Below the pieces are notes generated by a model. It saw nothing but the letters and a program-made list of their open reading frames with translations, was not told the DNA's origin and ran no database searches. A program made the translations under genes and the position numbers. Positions 49,081 to 58,111 of a stretch of DNA of 64,000 bases are shown one piece after another. The DNA comes from Anaerolineae bacterium (GTDB lineage Bacteria > Chloroflexota > Anaerolineae > B4-G1 > DUEL01), in the NCBI GenBank assembly GCA_041082215.1, contig JBDOIF010000154.1:1-64000 (forward strand), given 5' to 3'. The first letter of the stretch is position 1. Each line of letters starts with the position of its first letter.

Positions 49081-50421
49081 ATGGCCAAACGGGTAATCAT
49101 CATGGGTGCCGCAGGACGTGACTTCCACAACTTCAACGTCTATTTCCGCAACAACCCGGAGTATCAGGTCGTCGCCTTCACCGCCACGCAGATCCCCAAT
49201 ATCGAAGACCGCCGGTATCCCCCAGAGCTGGCCGGTGACCTCTACCCGGAGGGAATTCCGATCCATCCGGAGGAGAGGCTGAGTGAGCTGATCCACCAGC
49301 ATCAGGTTGACCAGGTGGTTTTTTCCTACTCCGACGTCTCTCACGAGTACGTGATGCACCGGGCCTCCCAGGCGCTGGCAGCCGGGGCGGACTTTCGATT
49401 GATGGGCGCCCGCTCGACGATGCTCGAAAGCCGGAAGCCCGTGGTGGCGGTCTGCGCCGTCCGCACCGGCTCCGGTAAGAGCCAGACCACCCGCCACGTC
49501 TGCGGTCTGCTGCAGGAAATGGGCAAAAAGGTGGTGGTGGTCCGCCACCCCATGCCCTACGGCGACCTGGTCGCCCAGACAGTGCAGCGGTTCGCCACCT
49601 ATGAGGACCTGGACCGGCATCGGTGCACCATCGAGGAGCGGGAGGAGTATGAGCCCCATATTGACCGCGGTGTGGTGGTCTATGCGGGGGTGGACTATGA
49701 GCGCATCCTCCGCCGGGCCGAAGAGGAAGCGGATGTGGTGGTGTGGGACGGCGGGAACAACGATCTCCCCTTTTTCCGGCCCGATCTCCATATCGTGGTC
49801 GCCGACCCTCATCGGCCTGGCCACGAGCTACGCTACCACCCGGGCGAGGCCAACCTCCGTATGGCCGATGTGGTGGTGATCAACAAGATTGATACCGCCG
49901 CACCTGAGGGGATCGCCCAGGTGCGGGAGAATGTCTATGCTGTTAACCCCCGGGCAATCGTGGTGGAGGCCGCCTCCCCCATCTTCGTCGAGGAGCCGGC
50001 AGTGATCCGGGGAAAGCGGGTGCTGGTGGTTGAGGACGGGCCAACGCTGACCCACGGGGAGATGGCCTACGGGGCCGGAGTGGTGGCCGCCCGACGGTTC
50101 GGCGCTGCCGCACTGGTGGACCCCCGCCCCTACGCTGTGGGTTCCATCCGCCAGACCTTTGAGAAATATCCCCATATGGGCCCGCTGTTGCCAGCGATGG
50201 GGTACGGCCAGGAGCAGACGCAGGAGCTGGAGGAGACCATCAACCAGGCCGAATGTGACCTGGTCCTGGTAGCCACCCCTATTGACCTGCGGCGAGTGAT
50301 CAACGTCCGCCATCCGATGGATCGGGTGCGGTATGAGCTGCAGGTGGTGGGCCAGCCGACGCTGCGGGAGATCCTGGCCGGGCGGTTCGGCCAAGAGCAG
50401 GGGAGTACGCGCTTGCGGTAG
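49081..50421 (+). CDS. P-loop ligase of the cyclic 2,3-diphosphoglycerate synthetase / arginine synthetase (ArcE) family
   Basis: IMGAAGRDFHNFN, AVRTGSGKSQT, RHPMPYG, TIEEREEYEPHI, WDGGNND, EDGPTLTHG, LPAMGY. Confidence 0.8.
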   Translation: MAKRVIIMGAAGRDFHNFNVYFRNNPEYQVVAFTATQIPNIEDRRYPPELAGDLYPEGIPIHPEERLSELIHQHQVDQVVFSYSDVSHEYVMHRASQALAAGADFRLMGARSTMLESRKPVVAVCAVRTGSGKSQTTRHVCGLLQEMGKKVVVVRHPMPYGDLVAQTVQRFATYEDLDRHRCTIEEREEYEPHIDRGVVVYAGVDYERILRRAEEEADVVVWDGGNNDLPFFRPDLHIVVADPHRPGHELRYHPGEANLRMADVVVINKIDTAAPEGIAQVRENVYAVNPRAIVVEAASPIFVEEPAVIRGKRVLVVEDGPTLTHGEMAYGAGVVAARRFGAAALVDPRPYAVGSIRQTFEKYPHMGPLLPAMGYGQEQTQELEETINQAECDLVLVATPIDLRRVINVRHPMDRVRYELQVVGQPTLREILAGRFGQEQGSTRLR

Positions 50422-50527
50422 AGAAGAACCACGGAGGCGCGGAGGATACAGAGGAGACTGAGAAAACGTGGAAGATTCCGTGTCCTCCGCGTCTCTGTGA
50501 TGAGTGTATCCTGCGCCGGAGGGACGG

Positions 50528-51853
50528 ATGCGCACGCTGATCCGCGATGTGACCATTATCCCTCTGGATGAGGGGGACCACCTCATCCGCGATGCGGAGA
50601 TCGCCATCGAGGGCAAGTATATCGTAGCTGTGGGGCAGGCCCCGCCTGGCTTTGAGCCCGATGAGGTGATCAATGGCCAGGAGATGGTCGCTCTTCCCGC
50701 CTTCTTTAACGCCCACACCCACGCGGCGATGACTCTGGAGCGGGGTTGGGCAGAGGACCTCCCTTTCGACCGGTGGCTGAACGAGAAGATCTGGGTGGCG
50801 GAGTCGGCCCTGGAAGCAGAGGATGTCTACTGGGGCGCGGCGCTGGCCTGCTGTGAGATGATCCGCTCCGGCACCGTCGGCTTCGCCGATCACTACTTCT
50901 GGATGGACCGGGTAGCCCAGGCGGTGGAGGAGGCGGGGATGAAGGCCTCGCTGGCCTGGTGTCAGTTCGGCATCGGCGCCGAGCACGAGGTGGGCGGGGC
51001 CGTACTGGAGGATACCCTGGCTTTCGTCCGGCGATGGCACGGTGCGGCGGGAGGCCGCATCCGCTGTATGCTGGGTCCCCATTCCCCCTATATGTGCCCG
51101 CCGGATTTCCTGCGGCGGGTGGCCGAAGAGGCGGCGAGGCTGGATGTGGGGGTCCACCTCCACGTGGCCGAATCGGAGGAGCAGGTGCAGGGCTCCCTCA
51201 AGGCCCACGGGCGAACCCCTGTGGCCCACCTGGCCAGCCTGGGCATCTTCGACCGCCCCACTCTTGCCGCCCACTGTATCGTGGTGAACGAGGAAGACCT
51301 GTCCATCCTGGCCGGGAAGGGGGTCTGTGTGGCCCATACCCCCAAGACCTATATGAAGCTGGCGATGGGGATGGCCCCGCTGGACCGGTTCCTGGCGGCC
51401 GGGGTGCAGGTGGGGTTAGGGACAGACGGCCCGGCCTCCAATAATGACCTGAATATGCTGGAGGTACTGCGGCTTGCGGGGCTGGTGCACAAAAACCGGG
51501 TGGTGGACCCGGCGGCATTCCCTCACAGTCTATTGCTCCGGCTGGCAACGCAGGGTTCTGCCCGCGCTCTGGGCTTTGTCGAGAGCGGGGTTCTGCGGGC
51601 CGGCGCTCCTGCCGACCTGATCCTCTTCGACAGCCAGCGCGCCCACTGGACCCCCCGCCACGATCTGGCAGCGAACGTGGTCTACGCCAGCCATCCGGCC
51701 GATGTCCGCTACGTCTTCTGCGACGGGCGGCTCCTCCTGCGGGATGGGGAGCTGACCACGCTGGACGAGGAGCGCATCCGATACGAAGCAGAACGGCGGG
51801 CCTTTCGGATGGTCGGCCAGCCGATGCGGCAGGTACGGGAATATCGGGGTTAG
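50528..51853 (+). CDS. Amidohydrolase, 5'-methylthioadenosine/S-adenosylhomocysteine deaminase-like
   Basis: NAHTH, PHSPY, HVAE, AHC, GTDGPASNNDL. Confidence 0.85.
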   Translation: MRTLIRDVTIIPLDEGDHLIRDAEIAIEGKYIVAVGQAPPGFEPDEVINGQEMVALPAFFNAHTHAAMTLERGWAEDLPFDRWLNEKIWVAESALEAEDVYWGAALACCEMIRSGTVGFADHYFWMDRVAQAVEEAGMKASLAWCQFGIGAEHEVGGAVLEDTLAFVRRWHGAAGGRIRCMLGPHSPYMCPPDFLRRVAEEAARLDVGVHLHVAESEEQVQGSLKAHGRTPVAHLASLGIFDRPTLAAHCIVVNEEDLSILAGKGVCVAHTPKTYMKLAMGMAPLDRFLAAGVQVGLGTDGPASNNDLNMLEVLRLAGLVHKNRVVDPAAFPHSLLLRLATQGSARALGFVESGVLRAGAPADLILFDSQRAHWTPRHDLAANVVYASHPADVRYVFCDGRLLLRDGELTTLDEERIRYEAERRAFRMVGQPMRQVREYRG

Positions 51854-51952
51854 TAGGGGCGCACCGCATTGCGCCCCTGCGGGCGCATCGCATTGCGCTC
51901 CTGCGGGCGCACCGCACTGCGCCCCTGCGGGCGCATCGCATTGCGCCCCTAC
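51853..51952. repeat. Four tandem 24-nt REP palindromes (GTAG...CTAC) between convergent genes
   Basis: GGGCGCA(C/T)CGCA(T/C)TGCGC(C/T)C four times, bounded by GTAG and CTAC. Confidence 0.9.
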
Positions 51953-52746: not shown

Positions 52747-54504
52747 CTAAGCCAGCTCTTCTTCTATGACAGAAAGTTCCAGTTTCTCGAAAAGTGGCTG
52801 GGGCTGCTGCAGTGGCTGACCGGCGACCAGCTCGCTGGAAGTCCAGCGCCCGATTGCCCCCGAGGGATCGTAGCAGAGGGCCTGGTGGCTCCGGCTTTCT
52901 TCGTGGAAGGTAGCGACATATTGGCGGCCGAACAGGGAGCCGTCATAGCCCAGGTAGCGGTGCAGGGCTTCGGAGGAGAAGGGGAGGAAGGGGGCGAAAA
53001 GGGTCTTGAGGGAGTCAATTGCCCGCAGCGCAACGTAGACCGTCGTAGCCGCCGCTGCCCGGTCTTCTTTGATCTGGAACCAGGGTCCCTTTTCCTCCAG
53101 ATACTTATTGACCTCGCGGGCCAGCGACAGCACCTCTCCCAGAGCTGCGCGGAACTTGCAGCCAGCGAGGAGGCGGCCGATGGGGCCGAAGGCGACATCT
53201 ATACGGGCCAGCAGCCCCACATCGGCCCGGTCCATCAGGCCGGGAGTCGGCACCCGTCCGTCGAAATGCTTGTAGGCGAAGGTGAGCACCCGGTGGCAGA
53301 GGTTCCCCCAGGTGGCGACCAGCTCATCGTTGTTGCGGCGCACGAACTCCGCCCAGCTGAAATCGGTGTCCCGCGTCTCCGGCATCACCGAGGCGACGTA
53401 ATAGCGCAGGGGGTCCGGGGCGAAGCGGGCCAGATAATCCGGCAGCCAGATCGCCAGCCCCCGGCTTTTGGAGAACTGCTGCCCCTCGATGTTCATGAAT
53501 TCGTTGGCCGGCACGTCGTAGGGGAGATTCAGCCTTCTGTTGGGGTCATCCTCATACAGCCGTTCCACCCCGATCAGCTCGGCCGGCCAGATGACGGAAT
53601 GGAAGGGAATATTGTCCTTGCCGATGAAATAATAACTGCGGGCGGCAGGGTTGTACCACCATTCCTTCCAGGCTTCCGGCCGGCCGACGTTACAGGCCCA
53701 CTCGATGCTGGCGGAAAGATAGCCGATGACCGCCTCGAACCAGACGTAGAGCCGTTTATCGGAGAAGCCCTCCAGAGGGACAGGGATGCCCCACTCGATA
53801 TCACGGGTGATAGGCCGGCCCTGGAGCCCGCCAGCCACGTAGTTGCGGGAGAAGTTGATGACGTTGGGTCGCCAGTGGTCCTTGTCTTCGGCCAGGTAGG
53901 CGGCGATTTGATCCTCAAGGGCAGGCAGGTCGAGGAAGAAATGCTCCGTTTCCCGTACTACGGGGACGGTGCCGTCAATTTTGCTGCGCGGATTGATCAG
54001 CTCCAGCGCGTCCAGAAGCGCGCCGCAGTTGTCGCACTGATCCCCCCGGGCTTCCTGATAGCCGCAGTGGGGGCAGGTCCCTTCGACATACCGATCCGGC
54101 AGAAAGCGGCCTTCCCTTTCGGAATAGAGCTGTCGCTGCTTCTGACGGTAGAGGTAGCCGTGCTCTAGGAGCCGCAGGAACATATCCTGGGCCACCCGGT
54201 AATGGTTTTCCGTGTCGGTATGGGTGAAGAGGTCGTAGCTGATGCCGATCTGCTGCTGGGTTTCCAGGAAGCGGGCGTGGAAGTGTTCGAAGACCTCCCG
54301 GGGGGTCATTCCCTCCCGATCGGCGTAGATGGTGATTGGGGTGCCGTGCGAGTCGGAGCCGGAGACCATTAAGACGTCGTTGCCGGCGAGTCGGTGGTAG
54401 CGGGCGAAGATGTCGGCGGGGAGATAGGCGCCCGCCAGATGCCCCACGTGCAGATCGCCGTTGGCGTAGGGCCAGGCGACACAGACCAGTATCTTTTCCG
54501 ACAT
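52747..54504 (-). CDS. metG: Methionyl-tRNA synthetase (no C-terminal dimerisation domain)
   Basis: AWPYANG.LHVGH, CPHC..RGDQCDNC, YVWFEA, IGKDNI.FH, QFSKS; ATG 54504 after AAGGAGG. Confidence 0.96.
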   Translation of the reverse strand: MSEKILVCVAWPYANGDLHVGHLAGAYLPADIFARYHRLAGNDVLMVSGSDSHGTPITIYADREGMTPREVFEHFHARFLETQQQIGISYDLFTHTDTENHYRVAQDMFLRLLEHGYLYRQKQRQLYSEREGRFLPDRYVEGTCPHCGYQEARGDQCDNCGALLDALELINPRSKIDGTVPVVRETEHFFLDLPALEDQIAAYLAEDKDHWRPNVINFSRNYVAGGLQGRPITRDIEWGIPVPLEGFSDKRLYVWFEAVIGYLSASIEWACNVGRPEAWKEWWYNPAARSYYFIGKDNIPFHSVIWPAELIGVERLYEDDPNRRLNLPYDVPANEFMNIEGQQFSKSRGLAIWLPDYLARFAPDPLRYYVASVMPETRDTDFSWAEFVRRNNDELVATWGNLCHRVLTFAYKHFDGRVPTPGLMDRADVGLLARIDVAFGPIGRLLAGCKFRAALGEVLSLAREVNKYLEEKGPWFQIKEDRAAAATTVYVALRAIDSLKTLFAPFLPFSSEALHRYLGYDGSLFGRQYVATFHEESRSHQALCYDPSGAIGRWTSSELVAGQPLQQPQPLFEKLELSVIEEELA

Positions 54505-54546
54505 AGCCTCCTCCTTACAAAGTCTCATTGTATCACAGGCTGATGG

Positions 54547-54577
54547 AAAAGAAAACCGCCAGCGGGGGCTGGCGGTT
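54547..54577 (-). terminator. Intrinsic terminator between rpoD and metG (candidate attenuator)
   Basis: AACCGCCAGC-CCCC-GCTGGCGGTT followed by TTCTTTT. Confidence 0.85.
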
Positions 54578-54610
54578 GAGGCCGTGGGTCCAGCAGCGGG
54601 ACCGTTGCGG

Positions 54611-54679
54611 TCAGAGCGCCTCCTCCTCCGACCGCCGCGGCAGGCAACGCATCATCATGGGGATTGGCCAGGTCAGCAT
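54611..54679 (-). CDS. Putative metG leader peptide MLTWPIPMMMRCLPRRSEEEAL
   Basis: 22-codon ORF starting 1 nt after the rpoD TAA; ATG ATG ATG at codons 8-10; overlaps an antiterminator segment. Confidence 0.65.
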   Translation of the reverse strand: MLTWPIPMMMRCLPRRSEEEAL

Positions 54680-54680
54680 A

Positions 54681-55823
54681 TTAGCTCAGGTAATCCCGTA
54701 ACTGACGGCTTCGCCGTGGATGGCGCAGCCGTCGCAGTGCCTTCCCTTCGATCTGACGGATCCGTTCCCGGGTGAGGCCGAACTTCTGGCCCACCTCTTC
54801 CAGCGTATAGCTCCGGCCCGTGCCCAGCCCGAAGCGGAGGCGGAGGATCCGCGCCTCCCGGGGGCTGAGGGTGGAGAGGATTTCCTCGATCTTCTCTGCC
54901 AGCAGGCTTTGATAGGTGCTCTGGGCTGGAGTAGGAGTGGTCTCGTCTTCGATGAAGGAGCCGAGCTCGCTATCTTCTTCCTCTCCCACCGGATGTTCGA
55001 GGCTCAGGGGCCGCCAGGAGACCCGCAGCATCCATTGTACCTTGCGCGGCTCCATTTCCATTTCGGCTGCGATCTCTTCGGGGGTTGGCACACGGCCCTG
55101 TTCCTGTTCCAGTTGGCGGGCCGTCTTGTACAGCCGACGGATGCGGTCGGACATATGGACCGGGACCCGGATGGTGCGGCCCTGGTCGGCGATGGCCCGG
55201 GTGATCGTCTGGCGGATCCACCAGGTGGCGTAAGTGCTGAATCGGTAACCCCGGTGGTAATCGAACTTTTCCACCGCCTTCATCAGACCCAGGTTCCCCT
55301 CCTGGATCAGGTCGAGGAAGGGAACCCCACGGCCCATATATTTCTTGGCGATGCTGACGACCAGGCGGGTATTGGCTTTGATCAGGTGCTCACGGGCAGC
55401 CCGGCCCTGTTCGATGAGGGCTTCCAGGCGGGCTCGCTCTACCGGATCGGTTCCGTCGTCGGCCAGCAGCCGCTGGGCTTCCTGTCCCAGTTCTACCATG
55501 CGGGCCAGGCGCACCTCCTCTTCGGTGGAGAGCAGGGGGACCCGCGCCATTTCTTTCAGATAGAGGCCCACCGCATCGTCTACTGAAACCTCGTCCAGGT
55601 CGTAGAGGTCCTCATCCAGCGCCTCCTCTTCGTCCAGCAGCTCTATCGGCTCTTCCTCCGGCTGCTGGTCCTGGACCTCGATACCCACTTCGTTCAGCCA
55701 GATATAGATTTCTTCCAGTTGATCCAGGGAGTCTTCCACCTCCGGCAGCACATCCAGAATGTCATCGGTTGTCAGATACCCTTGGATTTCCGCCCTTTCC
55801 AGGAGCTCGTCGAGTACACTCAT
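54681..55823 (-). CDS. rpoD: RNA polymerase sigma70 factor, RpoD/SigA type
   Basis: Region 1.1-like N-terminus, [30 protein letters not shown]. Confidence 0.9.
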
Positions 55824-55830
55824 AGGCCTC

Positions 55831-56334
55831 CTACCTGCTCCCCTCTTTATTGAAAAGCTCCGCCAGCACCGCCAGCCGAGGGTCTACGCGCTCTTCGTGA
55901 CAGCCGCATGGTTCCAGGTTCAGATTGGCGCCACACTCCGGGCAGATGCCCCGGCAGTCCGGGCGACAGAGCGGCTTCATAGGCAGCTCCACCCAGACCT
56001 GCTCGCGCAGCAGGGGAAGGGGGTCGAACCAACCCTCGTCGGTGAGCCTGTAGGTGATGCCAGGACGGGGGCGGCCAGCGAAGCCGATGATCTCCTCGAC
56101 CTCAAAAGTGGTGGTGTAAGGGAAACGGACCAGACAGCGGATACACTCGACCTCGACCTGGGTGTCGATCCTCCCCTCTACCAGAATACCACCCTGAATG
56201 CGAGTGAACTGCATCGGGCCACGGAGGAAGGCTACGCGGATATCGTCCAGCCACTGGGGACCTTCGTCCAGGGAGAACGTGAGGCGCTCACCCGGCCTCG
56301 CGCCGATCAATGGAGAGAGGTCAATTTGCAACAT
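55831..56334 (-). CDS. DUF177/YceD family protein
   Basis: [29 protein letters not shown]...C.C, DPRL..L. Confidence 0.92.
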
Positions 56335-56417
56335 AACGTCATATAGTAAAGAAGCCTGGCAGAGCCGCCCGGCTTATCCGAGAGCGAACTGCTTCGGCTT
56401 TTCTCTTGTTTGTGCTT

Positions 56418-56446
56418 ATTATAGCAGAAATATAGGCCTTCGTCAA
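56418..56446 (-). promoter_or_regulatory. Sigma70 promoter of DUF177-rpoD(-leader-metG)
   Basis: TTGACG-17 nt-TATAAT. Confidence 0.8.
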
Positions 56447-56616
56447 GGTTTTTTTGACCGGGGAGTCTGTAACAGTTTGGCAGGTAAGCAACAAAGTGAT
56501 CGCCAGTGTTCGCAAACGGAGGGTATAGAGGCGCAGAGAATCCTCAGCGTTCTCAGCGGAGCAGAATGTTGGCGCTGTAAGCTGAATCGGGTATAATCAA
56601 AATCAGCAGAGCAATT

Positions 56617-56862
56617 AGCCTCCAGCGCAGGCAGTTACCACATCTTCCAGAAAACTGAAATGCACCGGTGAAGGGAAGCACGGCGATCGCACAGCCTCCT
56701 CAGCCAATCCTGCCCGGTAGCATAGCAACTTAACAGGACCTTATGCGCCTGCCCTCTCTGGAAACGGGCGATTTGTGTGGGACGGCCTTTCCGGGCTGTC
56801 CAACAGTCTGGACGGCCTGTCCTGCATGGTTGTTGATCCTGGCTGTTGACGGCCGGGCGGCT
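56617..56862 (+). ncRNA. ssrS: Probable 6S RNA; 3' end uncertain (56796 or 56862)
   Basis: TATAAT at 56592-56597; non-coding rod-like pairings (AGCC/GGCT, GGCAGTT/GACGGCC, TTCCAGA/TCTGGAA, TGCACCGG/CCGGTAGCA). GGCAGTTACC and GGGAAGCACGG..TCGCAC resemble my recollection of cyanobacterial 6S RNA; not verified by search. Confidence 0.5.
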
Positions 56863-56868
56863 GCCGCA

Positions 56869-56897
56869 TTGACAGAATCCCCAGGCCGGGGTACCAT
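56869..56897 (+). promoter_or_regulatory. Sigma70 promoter positioned for a leaderless thiI mRNA
   Basis: TTGACA-17 nt-TACCAT, with the GTG start 7 nt downstream and no SD. Confidence 0.65.
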
Positions 56898-56903
56898 AAC
56901 GGC

Positions 56904-58097
56904 GTGAGTGAAAACATTGTGGCGAAGCTCATCAGCCAGCACGCCGTCGTCCATTACGCCGAGATCGGCCTCAAGGGGCGGAACCGCCCCTTCTTCGAAC
57001 GGGCCCTGGCGCAGAACATCTCCCGCCGGCTGGAAGGGCTGGGGCTGAAACCGGAGAGGGTGGAGCGGCTCTCCGGCCGCATGCTTGTCCACCTGGGCCG
57101 TCCGCTGGCCGGAGCGGCCTGGACCGAGGCGCTGGGGACGGTGTTCGGGATCGCCTATTTCTCCCCCGCCTTCCTGGTGGACCGGGAGATGGAGGCTATC
57201 CGCGCCGCCCTCCTTAAACACCTGCCGGATGGACCGGTGGCCTCCTTCCGCATCCGCGCCGCCCGGGACGATAAGTCCTTCCCCCTCACCTCCCCTGAGA
57301 TCGCACGGGAGCTGGGGGCAGTGGTCCAGGGACGGACAGGCTGGCCGGTCAACCTGAAGGGCGCGGAACTGACGATCGGGGTGGAGGTGCTCCGCGACCG
57401 GGTTATCCTCTCCTTCGGCCATCTGCCGGGGCCGGGCGGGCTGCCGGTGGGGACGAGCGGGCGGGTGGGGCTGATGCTCTCCGGCGGGATTGACTCCCCT
57501 GTCGCCGGTTTCCTTGCGCTGAAACGGGGATGCCGGGTCATCCCCATCCATTTCCACAGCCGCCCCTTCGGCAACTGGATGGGTTCGGAGGCGCGAGCGC
57601 GGGAGATCGTGCGGACGATGCGGGCCTACGGCATCGAACCCTACCTGTACGTCGTGCCCATCGGCCGCCAGCAGCGGGAGATCGCCGTCCGCGCCCCCGT
57701 CGCCTACCGCGTCATCCTCTACCGCCGCCTGATGGTCCGTGTGGCCGAGACGATCACCCGCCGGGAGGGCGGCAAGGCCCTCTTCACCGGCGAGTCGCTG
57801 GGCCAGGTGGCCTCCCAGACCCTGGAAAGCCTGAGTGTGGTGGAGGAGGCGGTGGGGATGCCGGTGCTCCGTCCCCTGATCGGGATGGATAAGAAAGAGA
57901 TCATCGCCCTGGCAGAGCGGATCGGCACGTTCCCCATCTCCCAGATGGAAGGGGACGATTGCTGCCAGTTCCTGATGCCCAGCCGGGTGGTCACCCACCC
58001 GCACCTCCAGGCGGTGCGGGAGGCAGAGGTGGCCGTGGAGATGGACCGGCTGGTGGAGGAAGCGTTGACGCGGGCAGGGCGGGTGAGCGTCGCTTAG
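56904..58097 (+). CDS. thiI: tRNA 4-thiouridine synthase (THUMP + PP-loop, no rhodanese)
   Basis: EIGLKG.NR..FE, GGLPVG, LSGGIDSPVA, GESLGQVASQT, DDCC. Confidence 0.94.
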   Translation: MSENIVAKLISQHAVVHYAEIGLKGRNRPFFERALAQNISRRLEGLGLKPERVERLSGRMLVHLGRPLAGAAWTEALGTVFGIAYFSPAFLVDREMEAIRAALLKHLPDGPVASFRIRAARDDKSFPLTSPEIARELGAVVQGRTGWPVNLKGAELTIGVEVLRDRVILSFGHLPGPGGLPVGTSGRVGLMLSGGIDSPVAGFLALKRGCRVIPIHFHSRPFGNWMGSEARAREIVRTMRAYGIEPYLYVVPIGRQQREIAVRAPVAYRVILYRRLMVRVAETITRREGGKALFTGESLGQVASQTLESLSVVEEAVGMPVLRPLIGMDKKEIIALAERIGTFPISQMEGDDCCQFLMPSRVVTHPHLQAVREAEVAVEMDRLVEEALTRAGRVSVA

Positions 58098-58111
58098 CAC
58101 AGGGGCGAGGC

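Follow-up and report, generated by a model that had tools for sequence, protein, structure and literature searches.

The 64,000-nucleotide stretch of Anaerolineae DNA analyzed here (the window) carries the genes yceD, rpoD and metG, and between the last two lies a short region with a small open reading frame (ORF), a set of predicted RNA helices and an intrinsic terminator (Table 1). The sequence features listed in the initial annotation of this region were all found where it had placed them on the minus strand, and its identification of rpoD and metG agrees with Pfam and NCBIfam models; the 380-aa ORF scores above the cut-off of the RpoD_Cterm model (NCBIfam). The rpoD stop codon, TAA (54683-54681), is followed by a single T and then by the ATG of the small ORF at 54679, and the stop codon of the small ORF, TGA (54611-54613), lies inside the 3' arm of hairpin P2. 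Seven of the 10 pairs of the terminator stem-loop (54577-54554) are G-C, and its 4-nt loop and 3' arm lead into TTCTTTTC. Further downstream, TGATACAAT (54535-54527) forms part of an extended -10-like element, and a Shine-Dalgarno sequence, AAGGAGGAGG (54507-54516), stands just ahead of the metG ATG at 54504. The leader of the window probably belongs to a transcript that starts at the promoter-like site upstream of yceD and rpoD; in the operon structure we infer, this would be the rpoD transcript.

Table 1. Features of the yceD-rpoD-metG region, in the order of transcription
Feature	Position	Strand	Remarks
Promoter-like site, TTGACG-17-TATAAT with TG	56418..56446	minus	Upstream of yceD and rpoD
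yceD	55831-56334		Upstream of rpoD; Pfam
rpoD (primary sigma factor, 380 aa)	54681..55823	minus	Pfam sigma-70 regions 1.1, 1.2, 2, 3, 4
Leader ORF, 22 codons, MLTWPIPMMMRCLPRRSEEEAL	54611..54679	minus	ATG 1 nt past rpoD stop; homologues in relatives
Met cluster, three ATG codons (proposed sensing codons)	54650..54658	minus	Sequence and alignment A1
P1 5' strand, GCCGCGG	54635..54641	minus	Starts 6 nt past last Met codon; P1 covariation
P2 hairpin	54607..54636	minus	G/A-rich apical loop 54618-54626; fold and compensatory changes
P3, small hairpin, GGTCC...GGACC	54587..54603	minus	Predicted in stalled-ribosome fold and group A consensus
P1 3' strand, CCACGGC	54581..54587	minus	3 nt upstream of terminator stem
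Intrinsic terminator: 10-bp stem, CCCC loop, T tract	54546..54577	minus	Compensatory changes in 64 sequences
Extended -10 promoter-like element, TGTGATACAAT	54527..54537	minus	Between terminator and metG
metG (methionine-tRNA ligase, 585 aa)	52747..54504	minus	TIGR00398 above cut-off

When considered alone, the window provides no statistical signal for this region: the 151 nt concerned fold unremarkably (z = -1.42, with 17 of 200 shuffles folding equally well). The arrangement could then be nothing special, with a terminator for rpoD, a separate promoter for metG, and a 22-codon ORF whose MMM run is a chance frame in G+C-rich DNA. Consistent with this, one close relative (L003) keeps rpoD, the terminator, the promoter and metG without the leader, and a loose search flagged 10 other terminators with Met-rich frames. 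Locus L018 was the single one of these inspected; what looked there and at other loci like a second Met-rich leader, downstream of metG on the opposite strand, was rejected, the frame in L018 being the out-of-frame, Asp-rich tail of a 135-aa ORF.

Evidence against a chance frame came from relatives. With the window MetG as the query, 80 loci in Anaerolineae MAGs (63-89% identity) were obtained, out of 473 confirmed MetG relatives, and the 75 with at least 150 nt of upstream DNA were informative for the leader. A short ORF with an in-frame Met cluster (M-x-M, MMM or MMxM) and a strong terminator precede metG in the window and in 63 of these 75 loci, and L052 also carries the element, across an N gap. 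When the 220 nt ahead of each terminator were shuffled, the mean probability was 0.0225 per locus, or ~1.44 expected of 64 against 63 observed. This and the other shuffle statistics overstate independence because the sequences share ancestry. The element is thus placed beyond chance by its conservation in relatives and not by a single-sequence fold. The initial annotation had made its case depend on the Met run and ORF being kept in relatives, and they are, with metG and whatever gene lies upstream. A chance frame is highly improbable, being already contradicted by this conservation, by the shuffles, by the presence of the element where rpoD is absent, by covariance-model matches restricted to metG, by in-frame start codons behind dedicated promoters, and by covariation of the helices.

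The distribution of the element follows metG. Only 12 of the 80 loci have rpoD directly upstream of metG; the other upstream neighbors include a glycosyltransferase, PadR, homocysteine methyltransferase-MTHFR, a PEP-utilising enzyme, PriA, a CoA transferase, an aldo-keto reductase, and others. A covariance model gave a single strong match in the window (66.5 bits) and one match per locus over 661 kb of relatives, each just before metG, and adjacency to metG in the same orientation holds across at least 10 upstream contexts. Across the loci compared, the element is one that travels with metG, not with rpoD, and it appears to represent a family spread through the class Anaerolineae, directly upstream of metG. 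The window copy is a weak member (66.5 bits, as against 77-120 for most copies). The leader is absent in seven of the 11 closest relatives, those with MetG at least 82% identical (L003-L007, L010 and L013), which indicates that the element is dispensable there.

The conserved part of the leader ORF centers on its Met codons. Clusters of two to four Met codons within three to five codons were found in 64 of 76 sequences, all before metG. In alignment A1, at least 90% of rows keep the first cluster ATG; in the second conserved ATG, the A and T are invariant and the G again reaches at least 90%. The middle codon of the cluster, in contrast, varies (MAM 15, MMM 8, MVM 8, MMRM 7, MIM 6, and others). 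The distance from the last Met codon to P1, two codons (6 nt in the window), is free of gaps throughout the alignment. An upstream in-frame ATG was identified for 63 of the 64 sequences, the nearest being 3-19 codons ahead and usually about 10, and a motif, M-x-M-[RC]-x-L-P-W, is kept at the level of the peptide. The leader stop codon has a fixed structural place inside each subgroup, lying 17-36 nt past P2 in groups B, D and E. As in leader-peptide attenuators, a conserved short ORF stands ahead of the gene, and the conservation of its frame suggests that it is translated.

Additional evidence for translation of the leader came from its promoters. Among the 52 element copies not linked to rpoD, 45 have their own near-consensus leader promoter, which matches the -35 hexamer at five positions or more. 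The reading frame set by the first ATG past this promoter is that of the Met cluster in 42 of the 45, where chance would give one third, and none of the 42 frames contains a stop. In 22 of the 42, this ATG lies only 6-10 nt past the -10 hexamer, a leaderless arrangement. No convincing leader promoter was found inside the rpoD 3' end when the rpoD-linked copies were searched; nine of the 12 rpoD-linked, leader-bearing copies, including the window, have a leader start close to where the rpoD stop codon ends, from 4 nt upstream of that point to 8 nt downstream of it. The proposal in the initial annotation that the leader is loaded from rpoD is therefore supported for one subgroup, with starts near the rpoD stop and no separate promoter, and does not extend to the other copies, which have leader promoters of their own.

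A second promoter is relevant to how much control the element could exert. The initial annotation cautioned that an extended -10-like sequence downstream of the terminator might drive metG independently, and this caveat is well founded and important for the window: an element scoring 5 of 6 plus TG follows the terminator in 10 of 12 group A copies and in 13 of 14 group C copies. The leader-less loci L003, L007, L010 and L013 have comparable extended -10-like sequences at the same place ahead of metG. Given this conserved element, an attenuator in the window could only add to metG transcription and would not gate all of it. In 16 loci of groups B, D and E, no TAnnnT hexamer occurs between the terminator and metG. 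Attenuators typically have no intervening promoter; the 16 relatives share this feature and the window lacks it.

These observations bear on the possibility that promoter, short ORF and terminator constitute an independent small gene, whose micropeptide or released small RNA acts elsewhere and which merely adjoins metG. Most loci do have a promoter and a terminator of their own for the leader, groups A and C have a metG promoter past the terminator, the peptide motif is kept, and the reported attenuator-derived rnTrpL and peTrpL of Sinorhizobium provide a precedent. Against this, adjacency to metG in one orientation is strict across the upstream contexts, nothing resembling a promoter hexamer follows the terminator ahead of metG in the 16 loci just described, and the conserved part of the peptide coincides with the RNA strands of P1 and P2. 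An independent small gene as the whole explanation is very unlikely, and a role of this kind would in any case be compatible with an attenuator.

Evidence for a conserved RNA structure came from covariation. Over P1, P2 and the terminator, 87.2% of cells are paired and the covariation score is 0.242, compared to 0.122 in shuffles (0 of 500 reach the observed score) and to at most 0.095 when the partners are slid. The initial annotation had suggested a test for covarying hairpins across metG upstream regions, and P1, P2 and the terminator show such covariation. In the window, P1 includes one C-A mismatch pair, and two outer pairs are non-standard. The position of an intrinsic terminator between the leader ORF and metG, as predicted from these sequences, is that expected of a leader-peptide attenuator.

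Conserved helices and strongly conserved strands would also be expected if the region were a structured cis-acting RNA with a protein or small-molecule ligand, for instance an operator through which MetRS regulates its own gene, or a riboswitch of an unknown type. The AUGs would then be an RNA motif and the ORF incidental. In copies other than those with MMM, the middle codon of the cluster mostly ends in C, creating CAUG, which contains the tRNA-Met anticodon triplet CAU. However, no hairpin presents the CAU, and the loops and junctions in the alignment lack the conservation expected of a ligand pocket. The frame is conserved, with the first post-promoter ATG in frame in 42 of 45 copies, no stops and often a leaderless placement, and the stop codon keeps its structural place within each group. 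Moreover, no Rfam family matched the window region or 12 representative loci. A ligand-binding RNA with an incidental ORF is accordingly quite unlikely.

Together, the conserved ORF, its Met cluster and frame, the promoter spacing, the helices, the terminator and the exclusive link to metG argue that this family controls transcription by ribosome-mediated (leader-peptide) attenuation with a specificity for methionine, a reading that we consider probable. The initial annotation proposed that GGCGGUCGGAGG pairs with CCUCAACCGCC as an antiterminator. The segments concerned are in place on the minus strand (GGCGGTCGGAGG at 54636-54625, CCTCAACCGCC at 54581-54571 and CTCTGACCGC at 54616-54607), but pairing between the homologous columns, at 65.7%, equals the shuffle mean (281 of 500 shuffles reach it), one central pair is present in just 10 of the 63 sequences that have no gap at either column, and the pairing does not form in the window fold with a stalled ribosome. 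When pairing probabilities were computed on alignment columns by subgroup, no shared partner for the terminator emerged; the proposed segment is used by group A only, with a pairing probability that goes from 0.09 to 0.23.

Other approaches likewise provided little evidence for a classical antiterminator. An overlapping 2:3 hairpin was not found by alignment counts or duplex energies, and the best duplexes between the terminator 5' arm and the interior of the element were no better than shuffles (mean z of -0.24; 6 of 64 below -1.64). The initial annotation suggested folding with a ribosome footprint; full-length minimum-energy folds with the ribosome masked at the Met cluster or the stop codon contained the terminator in every state, in each of the 15 sequences shown, so that a switch is beyond the reach of equilibrium folding. 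With the terminator 3' arm removed, an antiterminator appeared on stalling in L001, appeared with or without stalling in L034, and did not appear in the window or most other sequences. Masking the stalled ribosome shifted the sequestration of the 5' arm slightly, to a mean of 0.55 from 0.51 in the free RNA (Wilcoxon p = 0.024). The core of the original attenuator idea, namely the conserved ORF, Met run and terminator, is strongly supported by comparison with relatives, and its specific antiterminator is unsupported across the family.

A different candidate came from RNAalifold runs on the separate subgroups. With the terminator 3' arm left out, these runs recovered P2, and for groups D and E they also paired the P2 loop with the terminator apex. 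Because MAFFT sets the loop motif out of register between groups, pairing of the P2 apex was evaluated by permutation. In the 50 copies outside group C, the duplex between the P2 apex and the terminator apex has a mean energy of -10.95 kcal/mol, compared to -7.9 kcal/mol for shuffled apices (0 of 300 reach the observed mean) and -10.11 kcal/mol for swapped partners (0 of 500 reach it). Matched changes in the two apices were seen in L039 and L049 and in L045 and L053. Such complementarity is absent from the 14 copies of group C, and in the window the duplex reaches just -8.5 kcal/mol. The P2 apex-terminator apex duplex, which covaries in the 50 copies outside group C, is thus a candidate antiterminator pairing, with a putative sign and a putative dependence on the ribosome.

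The sign of the response could also be the reverse. Read-through might be favored when the leader is translated to its end, or when P1 closes, and termination when the ribosome stalls; alternatively, a kiss between the P2 loop and the terminator loop might stabilize the terminator when P1 is closed. In either case, read-through into metG would be tied to translational capacity in a way other than in the trp model. The P2 and terminator stems are similar in length and in L039 and L045 the complementary bases lie mostly in loops, as in kissing hairpins; by geometry, in the window's group, a ribosome at the stop codon covers the P2 partner and would free the trailing P2 sequence UGGCGGUC for the terminator 5' arm. 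The thermodynamic tests, moreover, give no clear stall-dependent antiterminator. However, making less MetRS when charged tRNA-Met is short would contradict the regulation established for other synthetase genes (the pheST attenuator and T-boxes), the constant two-codon spacing between the Met cluster and P1 suits a stalled ribosome that opens P1, and a stop codon within P2 in group A suits the classical logic. We regard such reversed or otherwise different logic as unlikely. With the stop codon lying beyond P2 in groups B, D and E, a ribosome that terminates there does not obviously mask this hairpin, so the direction of the switch is offered here as a proposal only.

The attenuation model that we favor is as follows. 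The short leader ORF would be translated, in the window by ribosomes that probably load at the ATG one base past the rpoD stop, and in most relatives on a transcript from its own promoter, frequently a leaderless one. The Met codons, two or three in number, sit exactly two codons before the 5' strand of P1, which would close a junction holding P2 and a further hairpin, with the strong intrinsic terminator next. When charged elongator tRNA-Met is plentiful, the ribosome would reach the stop codon, inside P2 in the window's group, the junction and the terminator would fold, and transcription would end before metG. When charged tRNA-Met is short, the ribosome would stall on the Met cluster and cover the start of the P1 5' strand; by textbook footprint sizes, a ribosome with the last AUG in its A site covers just the first few bases of P1. 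With P1 unable to close and P2 folded, the P2 loop could pair with the top of the terminator 5' arm and the terminator loop, delaying terminator folding so that RNA polymerase reads through into metG. In the window, such read-through would be a boost above basal expression of metG from its own promoter, and the terminator would also end the yceD-rpoD transcript. A combined reading, in which the family represents a new architecture of leader-peptide attenuator, is tentative, and we think it more doubtful than not in its entirety. On this reading, a stalled ribosome would not release a classical overlapping antiterminator; it would open P1, the helix that closes a three-way junction, and termination would then be decided by the P2 loop binding the terminator apex, as a kissing hairpin or pseudoknot. 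The sensor of the window's clade would have lost its own promoter and would be loaded from rpoD. If it is true, sigma-70 translation, charged tRNA-Met and MetRS supply would be coupled on one transcript in that clade.

In Firmicutes, RNA-level control of metG and methionine genes usually relies on T-box and SAM (S-box) riboswitches, and leader-peptide attenuators are textbook mechanisms for Trp, His, Leu, Thr, Ile/Val and Phe. The metG element shares with T-boxes and SAM riboswitches its aim, the matching of metG or methionine genes to supply, and its output, a terminator before the gene. In contrast to a T-box, the region from leader to terminator contains a conserved ORF and spans about 120-150 nt, which is presumably too short for a full T-box. 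An Rfam search of positions 53500-56500 of the window at E up to 10 returned nothing but two chance-level matches to eukaryotic or viral families, and 12 representative loci gave no match at gathering score. Neither search detected a T-box (RF00230), nor did any SAM riboswitch (S-box and relatives) match in the window region or the 12 loci.

There are parallels with the E. coli pheST operon (pheM leader) and with the trp, his, leu and thr leaders, where a short ORF with a run of cognate codons and a terminator likewise precede the regulated gene. As in pheST, that gene encodes the synthetase of the sensed amino acid, and as in the trp leader the codon cluster is small (two or three codons). 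The metG element differs from these classical leaders in sensing AUG and targeting metG, in having a P1-closed junction with P2 loop-terminator apex complementarity where no 2:3 antiterminator was found, in the predicted leaderless mRNAs of many copies, and, in the window, in an ORF that starts 1 nt past the rpoD stop and a promoter that follows the terminator. Methionine is a special case for this type of control, since AUG doubles as the start codon and MetRS has the initiator as well as the elongator tRNA to charge.

A literature search found no description of a leader-peptide attenuator for methionine or before metG. Attenuators have been predicted by comparative genomics before other synthetase genes outside the Proteobacteria: Seliverstov et al. 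2005 (PMC1262725) propose classical attenuators for trpS and leuS in Streptomyces, and Naville and Gautheret 2010 (PMC2965389) describe a His leader before hisS paralogues in bacilli. These cases differ from the metG element in amino acid, phylum and RNA fold. PMC1262725 also draws the pheST parallel, and reports that methionine operons in Actinobacteria showed no conserved RNA structure. The supplement of PMC2965389 includes premature terminators ahead of metG or metS for Actinobacillus, Bacillus clausii and Clostridium acetobutylicum, that of the last species being a T-box, and the string 'Chloroflex' occurs nowhere in it.

The combination of a Met-cluster ORF, a folded RNA and a terminator points to a so far undescribed methionine-sensing leader-peptide switch. 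The family would provide a testable model for how the Anaerolineae, a large and poorly studied group of Chloroflexota, match MetRS to demand without T-boxes or SAM riboswitches. Its copies vary naturally in whether a bypass promoter is present, in how the leader is started (on a leaderless mRNA or by loading from rpoD) and in whether the P2 and terminator loops are complementary, and such variants would be useful for dissecting the read-out of a stalled ribosome. For annotation, the element would account for the conserved non-coding block that dozens of MAGs carry in front of metG, and the covariance model supplied may be used to find more.

The layout of the window locus is given in the table below, and the complementary segments listed in the initial annotation were all found in the window sequence where it had placed them. 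An Rfam scan of positions 53500-56500 gave no relevant match, even at E values up to 10, and a T-box or SAM riboswitch was rejected on this ground. The leader region folded alone is not unusual (z = -1.42). Because the fold is unremarkable and the Rfam scan blank, the case for a regulatory element rests on comparison with relatives. At 56418-56597, two promoter-like sites stand back to back and resemble a divergent promoter region: TTGACG-17-TATAAT plus TG, on the minus strand, precedes yceD-rpoD, and 120 nt away the plus strand carries TTGGCG-17-TATAAT. Three further minus-strand ORFs, at 56730-58100, 51198-51941 and 50300-51337 (456, 247 and 345 aa), gave no Pfam match at E values up to 0.001; the last two overlap by 140 nt, and at least one of them may be no gene.

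Features of the rpoD-metG region in the window
Feature	Position (nt)	Strand	Remarks
yceD	56334-55831	minus	
rpoD	55823-54681	minus	stop codon TAA
Leader ORF, 22 codons, MLTWPIPMMMRCLPRRSEEEAL	54679-54611	minus	starts one T past the rpoD stop
Three ATG codons (Met cluster)	54658-54650	minus	within the leader ORF
Hairpin carrying the leader stop codon in its 3' arm		minus	between Met cluster and terminator
Intrinsic terminator, 10-bp stem, CCCC loop	54577-54554	minus	followed by TTCTTTTC
Extended -10 element, TGTGATACAAT	54537-54527	minus	between terminator and metG
metG	ATG 54504 to 52747	minus	preceded by AAGGAGGAGG

A search of genome_contigs with the window MetG confirmed 473 relatives, of which the best 80 (loci L001 onward; 63-89% identity, 89% being the highest) were analysed. 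Almost all of these 80 are MAG contigs labelled Anaerolineae, Anaerolineales, Ardenticatenales, Thermoflexales or Chloroflexota. L042 (JAIWHF010000142.1), labelled as a Methanosarcinales archaeon MAG, combines a metG of bacterial Anaerolineae type, 69% identical, with a leader element (116.8 bits) near-identical to copies in Anaerolineales MAGs; this contig is probably mis-binned. Four of the 80 loci lacked the MetG N-terminus and L023 had 34 nt upstream; these were left out of the leader count, which covers the remaining 75 loci and the window. All statistics below concern sequences related to each other.

The initial annotation tied its reading to conservation of the Met run and the short ORF, and both are kept in the window and 63 of the 75 loci. 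In these 64 of 76 sequences, drawn from the best 80 of 473 relatives, a Met cluster lies in frame 40-170 nt ahead of a strong terminator, in an ORF that closes before the terminator's end. Dinucleotide shuffles of the 220 nt ahead of each terminator gave a mean probability of 0.0225, or 1.44 of 64 expected, against 63 seen with the same strict rule. The commonest patterns are MAM (15), MMM (8), MVM (8), MMRM (7), MIM (6), MMGM (4) and MMAM (3), besides others; in the alignment of the 64 elements (A1), the middle codon varies while the outer ATGs are almost invariant, the pattern expected from selection on Met codons. The rule missed 12 of the 76 sequences. Among them, L052 does carry the leader across an N gap (47 bits with the covariance model R1, built from A1), the leader region of L074 is masked by N, and the leader is genuinely missing in ten loci (L003-L007, L010, L013, L073, L075 and L076). 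In the distant relatives L073 and L075 (approximately L073:3700-3960 and L075:3000-3140), a promoter, a short ORF with a single internal Met codon and a terminator precede metG; these arrangements, which fall outside the cluster rule and R1, may be diverged forms of the element.

As a control, 150 terminator-like hairpins were taken from both strands of the window and all loci. A looser Met-leader rule flagged 70, of which 60 were the metG elements and 10 lay elsewhere, six of the latter with Met-rich frames. One such frame, in L018, was rejected because it arises when the Asp-rich end of a 135-aa ORF (L018:7930-8337, minus strand) is read out of frame; this ORF is convergent with metG and closes with a run of Asp/Glu codons (GAT/GAC/GAA/GAG) followed by a terminator. 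Similar Met-rich frames occur in comparable places in L019, L029, L043, L044 and L056. The spurious L018 frame is a trap for automatic Met-leader searches.

Several features point to translation of the leader. An in-frame ATG precedes the cluster in 63 of 64 copies, the nearest lying 3-19 codons before it and typically about 10. Of the 52 copies without an rpoD link, 45 carry a promoter close to consensus within 160 nt (5/6 or more matches in the -35 hexamer, and a -10 with A2 and T6). Taking the first ATG at least 4 nt past the -10, 42 of these 45 copies have it in frame with the cluster, where chance predicts one third, and in all 42 the frame is free of stop codons between that ATG and the cluster. 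In 22 of these 42 copies the ATG stands 6-10 nt past the -10, including 13 with a distance of exactly 7 nt; judged by sequence, such spacing is that of a leaderless mRNA.

The conserved blocks of A1 are CUGCCGUGG, which follows the Met cluster at a constant, gapless spacing of two codons, CACGGCA, a short way ahead of the terminator, and the terminator itself. RNAalifold recovered the terminator and the base of P2, a hairpin inside the junction closed by helix P1, with compensatory changes. Counted jointly, P1 (columns 28-35/124-131), P2 (36-39/62-65) and the terminator (146-154/165-173) are paired in 87.2% of cells with a covariation score of 0.242, compared with 0.122 for column shuffles (0/500 reached 0.242) and at most 0.095 for slid partners. 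R1 has a single strong match in the window, scoring 66.5 bits at 54546-54667 on the minus strand; the runner-up reaches 16.9 bits and has no P1. Across the 661,594 bases of the loci it finds exactly one strong match per locus, always immediately 5' of metG. The genes 5' of the element change among the 17 loci examined and include a glycosyltransferase, PadR, a homocysteine methyltransferase-MTHFR fusion, an alpha/beta hydrolase, a PEP-utilising enzyme, PriA, a CoA transferase, an aldo-keto reductase, DUF3800 and a copper-binding protein. Together, these observations indicate that the element moves with metG. In the window and these loci it comprises a Met-cluster ORF that is conserved, a fixed distance from cluster to P1, a hairpin junction and a terminator, and it is associated exclusively with metG.

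Two neighbourhoods deserve separate mention. In group B, one of the subgroups of copies (the window belongs to group A), metG of three loci lies in a methionine-related neighbourhood: a fused homocysteine S-methyltransferase/methylenetetrahydrofolate reductase gene for methionine synthesis (L018:1409-3298, L025:1291-3189, L057:1784-3646) stands 143-528 nt 5' of the leader. L066 has a 6S RNA gene about 1.6 kb 3' of metG (L066:7326-7499, plus strand; 66 bits against a gathering score of 46.4).

The antiterminator of the initial annotation is not supported across the family: its columns (34-40/147-153) are 65.7% paired, equal to the shuffle mean (281/500 shuffles reach this), and one central pair occurs in 10 of the 63 sequences with letters in both columns, namely the window's subgroup. 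Full-length folds were computed with no ribosome and with one masked at the stop or at the Met cluster; in every state the terminator persists in all 15 sequences shown. When the 3' arm is removed, the terminator 5' arm is captured upon stalling in L001, stalled or not in L034, and not in the window. The mean probability that the 5' arm pairs upstream shows a small rise, from 0.51 to 0.55, when stalled (60 sequences; Wilcoxon p = 0.024). The best duplexes between 5' arm and interior are no stronger than those with shuffled interiors (mean z -0.24; 6/64 below -1.64). None of these more general tests revealed a classical antiterminator.

Subgroup consensus folds suggest another contact, between the apical part of P2 and the top of the terminator 5' arm with its loop, where the motifs NGAGGC and GCCUCN are complementary. 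Conservation of this loop is unusually high for a terminator. Outside group C (50 copies), the apex duplexes average -10.95 kcal/mol, against -7.90 +/- 0.32 for shuffled apices (0/300 as low) and -10.11 +/- 0.23 for swapped partners (0/500), permutation counts that cannot serve as probabilities because the sequences are related. Matched changes occur in L039 and L049 (GCGGAGC with GCUCCGC), L045 (GGGAGGA with UCCUCCC) and L053 (GUGAGGC with GCCUCAC). The exceptions are L025, L026, L028, L030, L047, L054 and L061; the window duplex is weak (-8.5 kcal/mol), and the complementarity is not seen in the 14 group C copies (81/500).

These data point to the following model as the most likely one, in which the ribosome footprint is assumed to have textbook size. 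When charged tRNA-Met is short, a ribosome would stall at the cluster and cover the start of the P1 5' strand. P1 would stay open and P2 would fold, its loop capturing the terminator apex; the terminator would then fold late, and RNA polymerase would proceed into metG. With ample tRNA-Met, the ribosome would reach the stop codon, located within P2 in group A, and so melt P2; P1 and the terminator would form and transcription would end. The same P2-terminator contact could be either an antiterminator or a stabilising kiss, and the sign of the switch may be reversed.

The proposed stalling switch would work like the pheST, trp and his leaders, with which the element shares four defining features, namely a short ORF, cognate codons, a terminator and a cognate target gene. 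As to the alternative antiterminator pairing of leader-peptide attenuators, what was seen is the apex complementarity outside group C; the window also differs from such attenuators in having a promoter between terminator and gene. The initial annotation knew of no Met-codon attenuator, and full-text searches outside subscription journals likewise yielded no description of a methionine-codon leader or metG attenuator, so an earlier one may exist in subscription journals. In published work, trpS and leuS attenuators are predicted in Streptomyces and none is reported for methionine operons (PMC1262725); a His leader is reported before hisS paralogues, and three non-Chloroflexi species are listed with premature terminators before metG or metS, one being a T-box (PMC2965389); and Chloroflexi are mentioned merely as too sparsely sampled (PMC4833913).

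Loading of the leader by re-initiation from rpoD, as initially suggested, is plausible for one subgroup but not family-wide. rpoD lies directly 5' of metG in at least 12 of the 80 loci, some of which have little upstream DNA (in L013 it is 2.7 kb upstream), and 11 of 12 rpoD-linked loci, all except L003, have a Met-cluster short ORF in between. The leader starts -4 to +8 nt from the end of the rpoD stop in 9 of 12 rpoD-linked, leader-bearing copies (the window, L011, L012, L034, L037, L045, L053, L061 and L063), and no convincing leader promoter was found in the rpoD 3' end; loading by ribosomes finishing rpoD is therefore plausible in this subgroup, judging from gene arrangement. The rpoD linkage is a derived arrangement, outside the definition of the family. 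The close relatives L001, L002 and L008 have extra DNA of about 80 nt separating the rpoD stop from the leader, a long, imperfect inverted repeat rich in CACAGAG/CTCTGTG units (approximately L001:3690-3780, L002:700-790 and L008:3695-3775). It is missing from the window and looks like a REP- or MITE-like insertion.

Of the window's 11 closest relatives, defined by a MetG identity of 82% or more, four have the leader (L001, L002, L008 and L063) and seven lack it. With R1, most copies score 77-120 bits, above the window's. In the window copy, P1 contains a C-A mismatch and the terminator loop, CCCC, no longer shows the GCCUCG motif; both the ORF and MMM are intact. This copy may be decaying or weaker than others of the family, and dispensable in a clade with a bypass promoter. 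In L004, which has no leader, about five tandem units of about 21 nt (…GGAAGGGAATAGCTGGTAGCC…; approximately L004:3880-3990, just 5' of metG) fall between promoter-like TAGTAGAAT and the metG start.

The extended -10, earlier raised as a caveat because it could drive metG independently, proved to be conserved: of 12 group A copies, 10 (the window among them) have an extended -10 (5/6 plus TG) between terminator and metG, as do 13 of the 14 in group C, and a similar sequence occupies the same place in leader-less L003, L007, L010 and L013. In the window's group, therefore, read-through would only add to a basal promoter. In 16 loci from groups B, D and E the stretch between terminator and metG contains no TAnnnT hexamer, which indicates that in a substantial part of the family metG depends on read-through.
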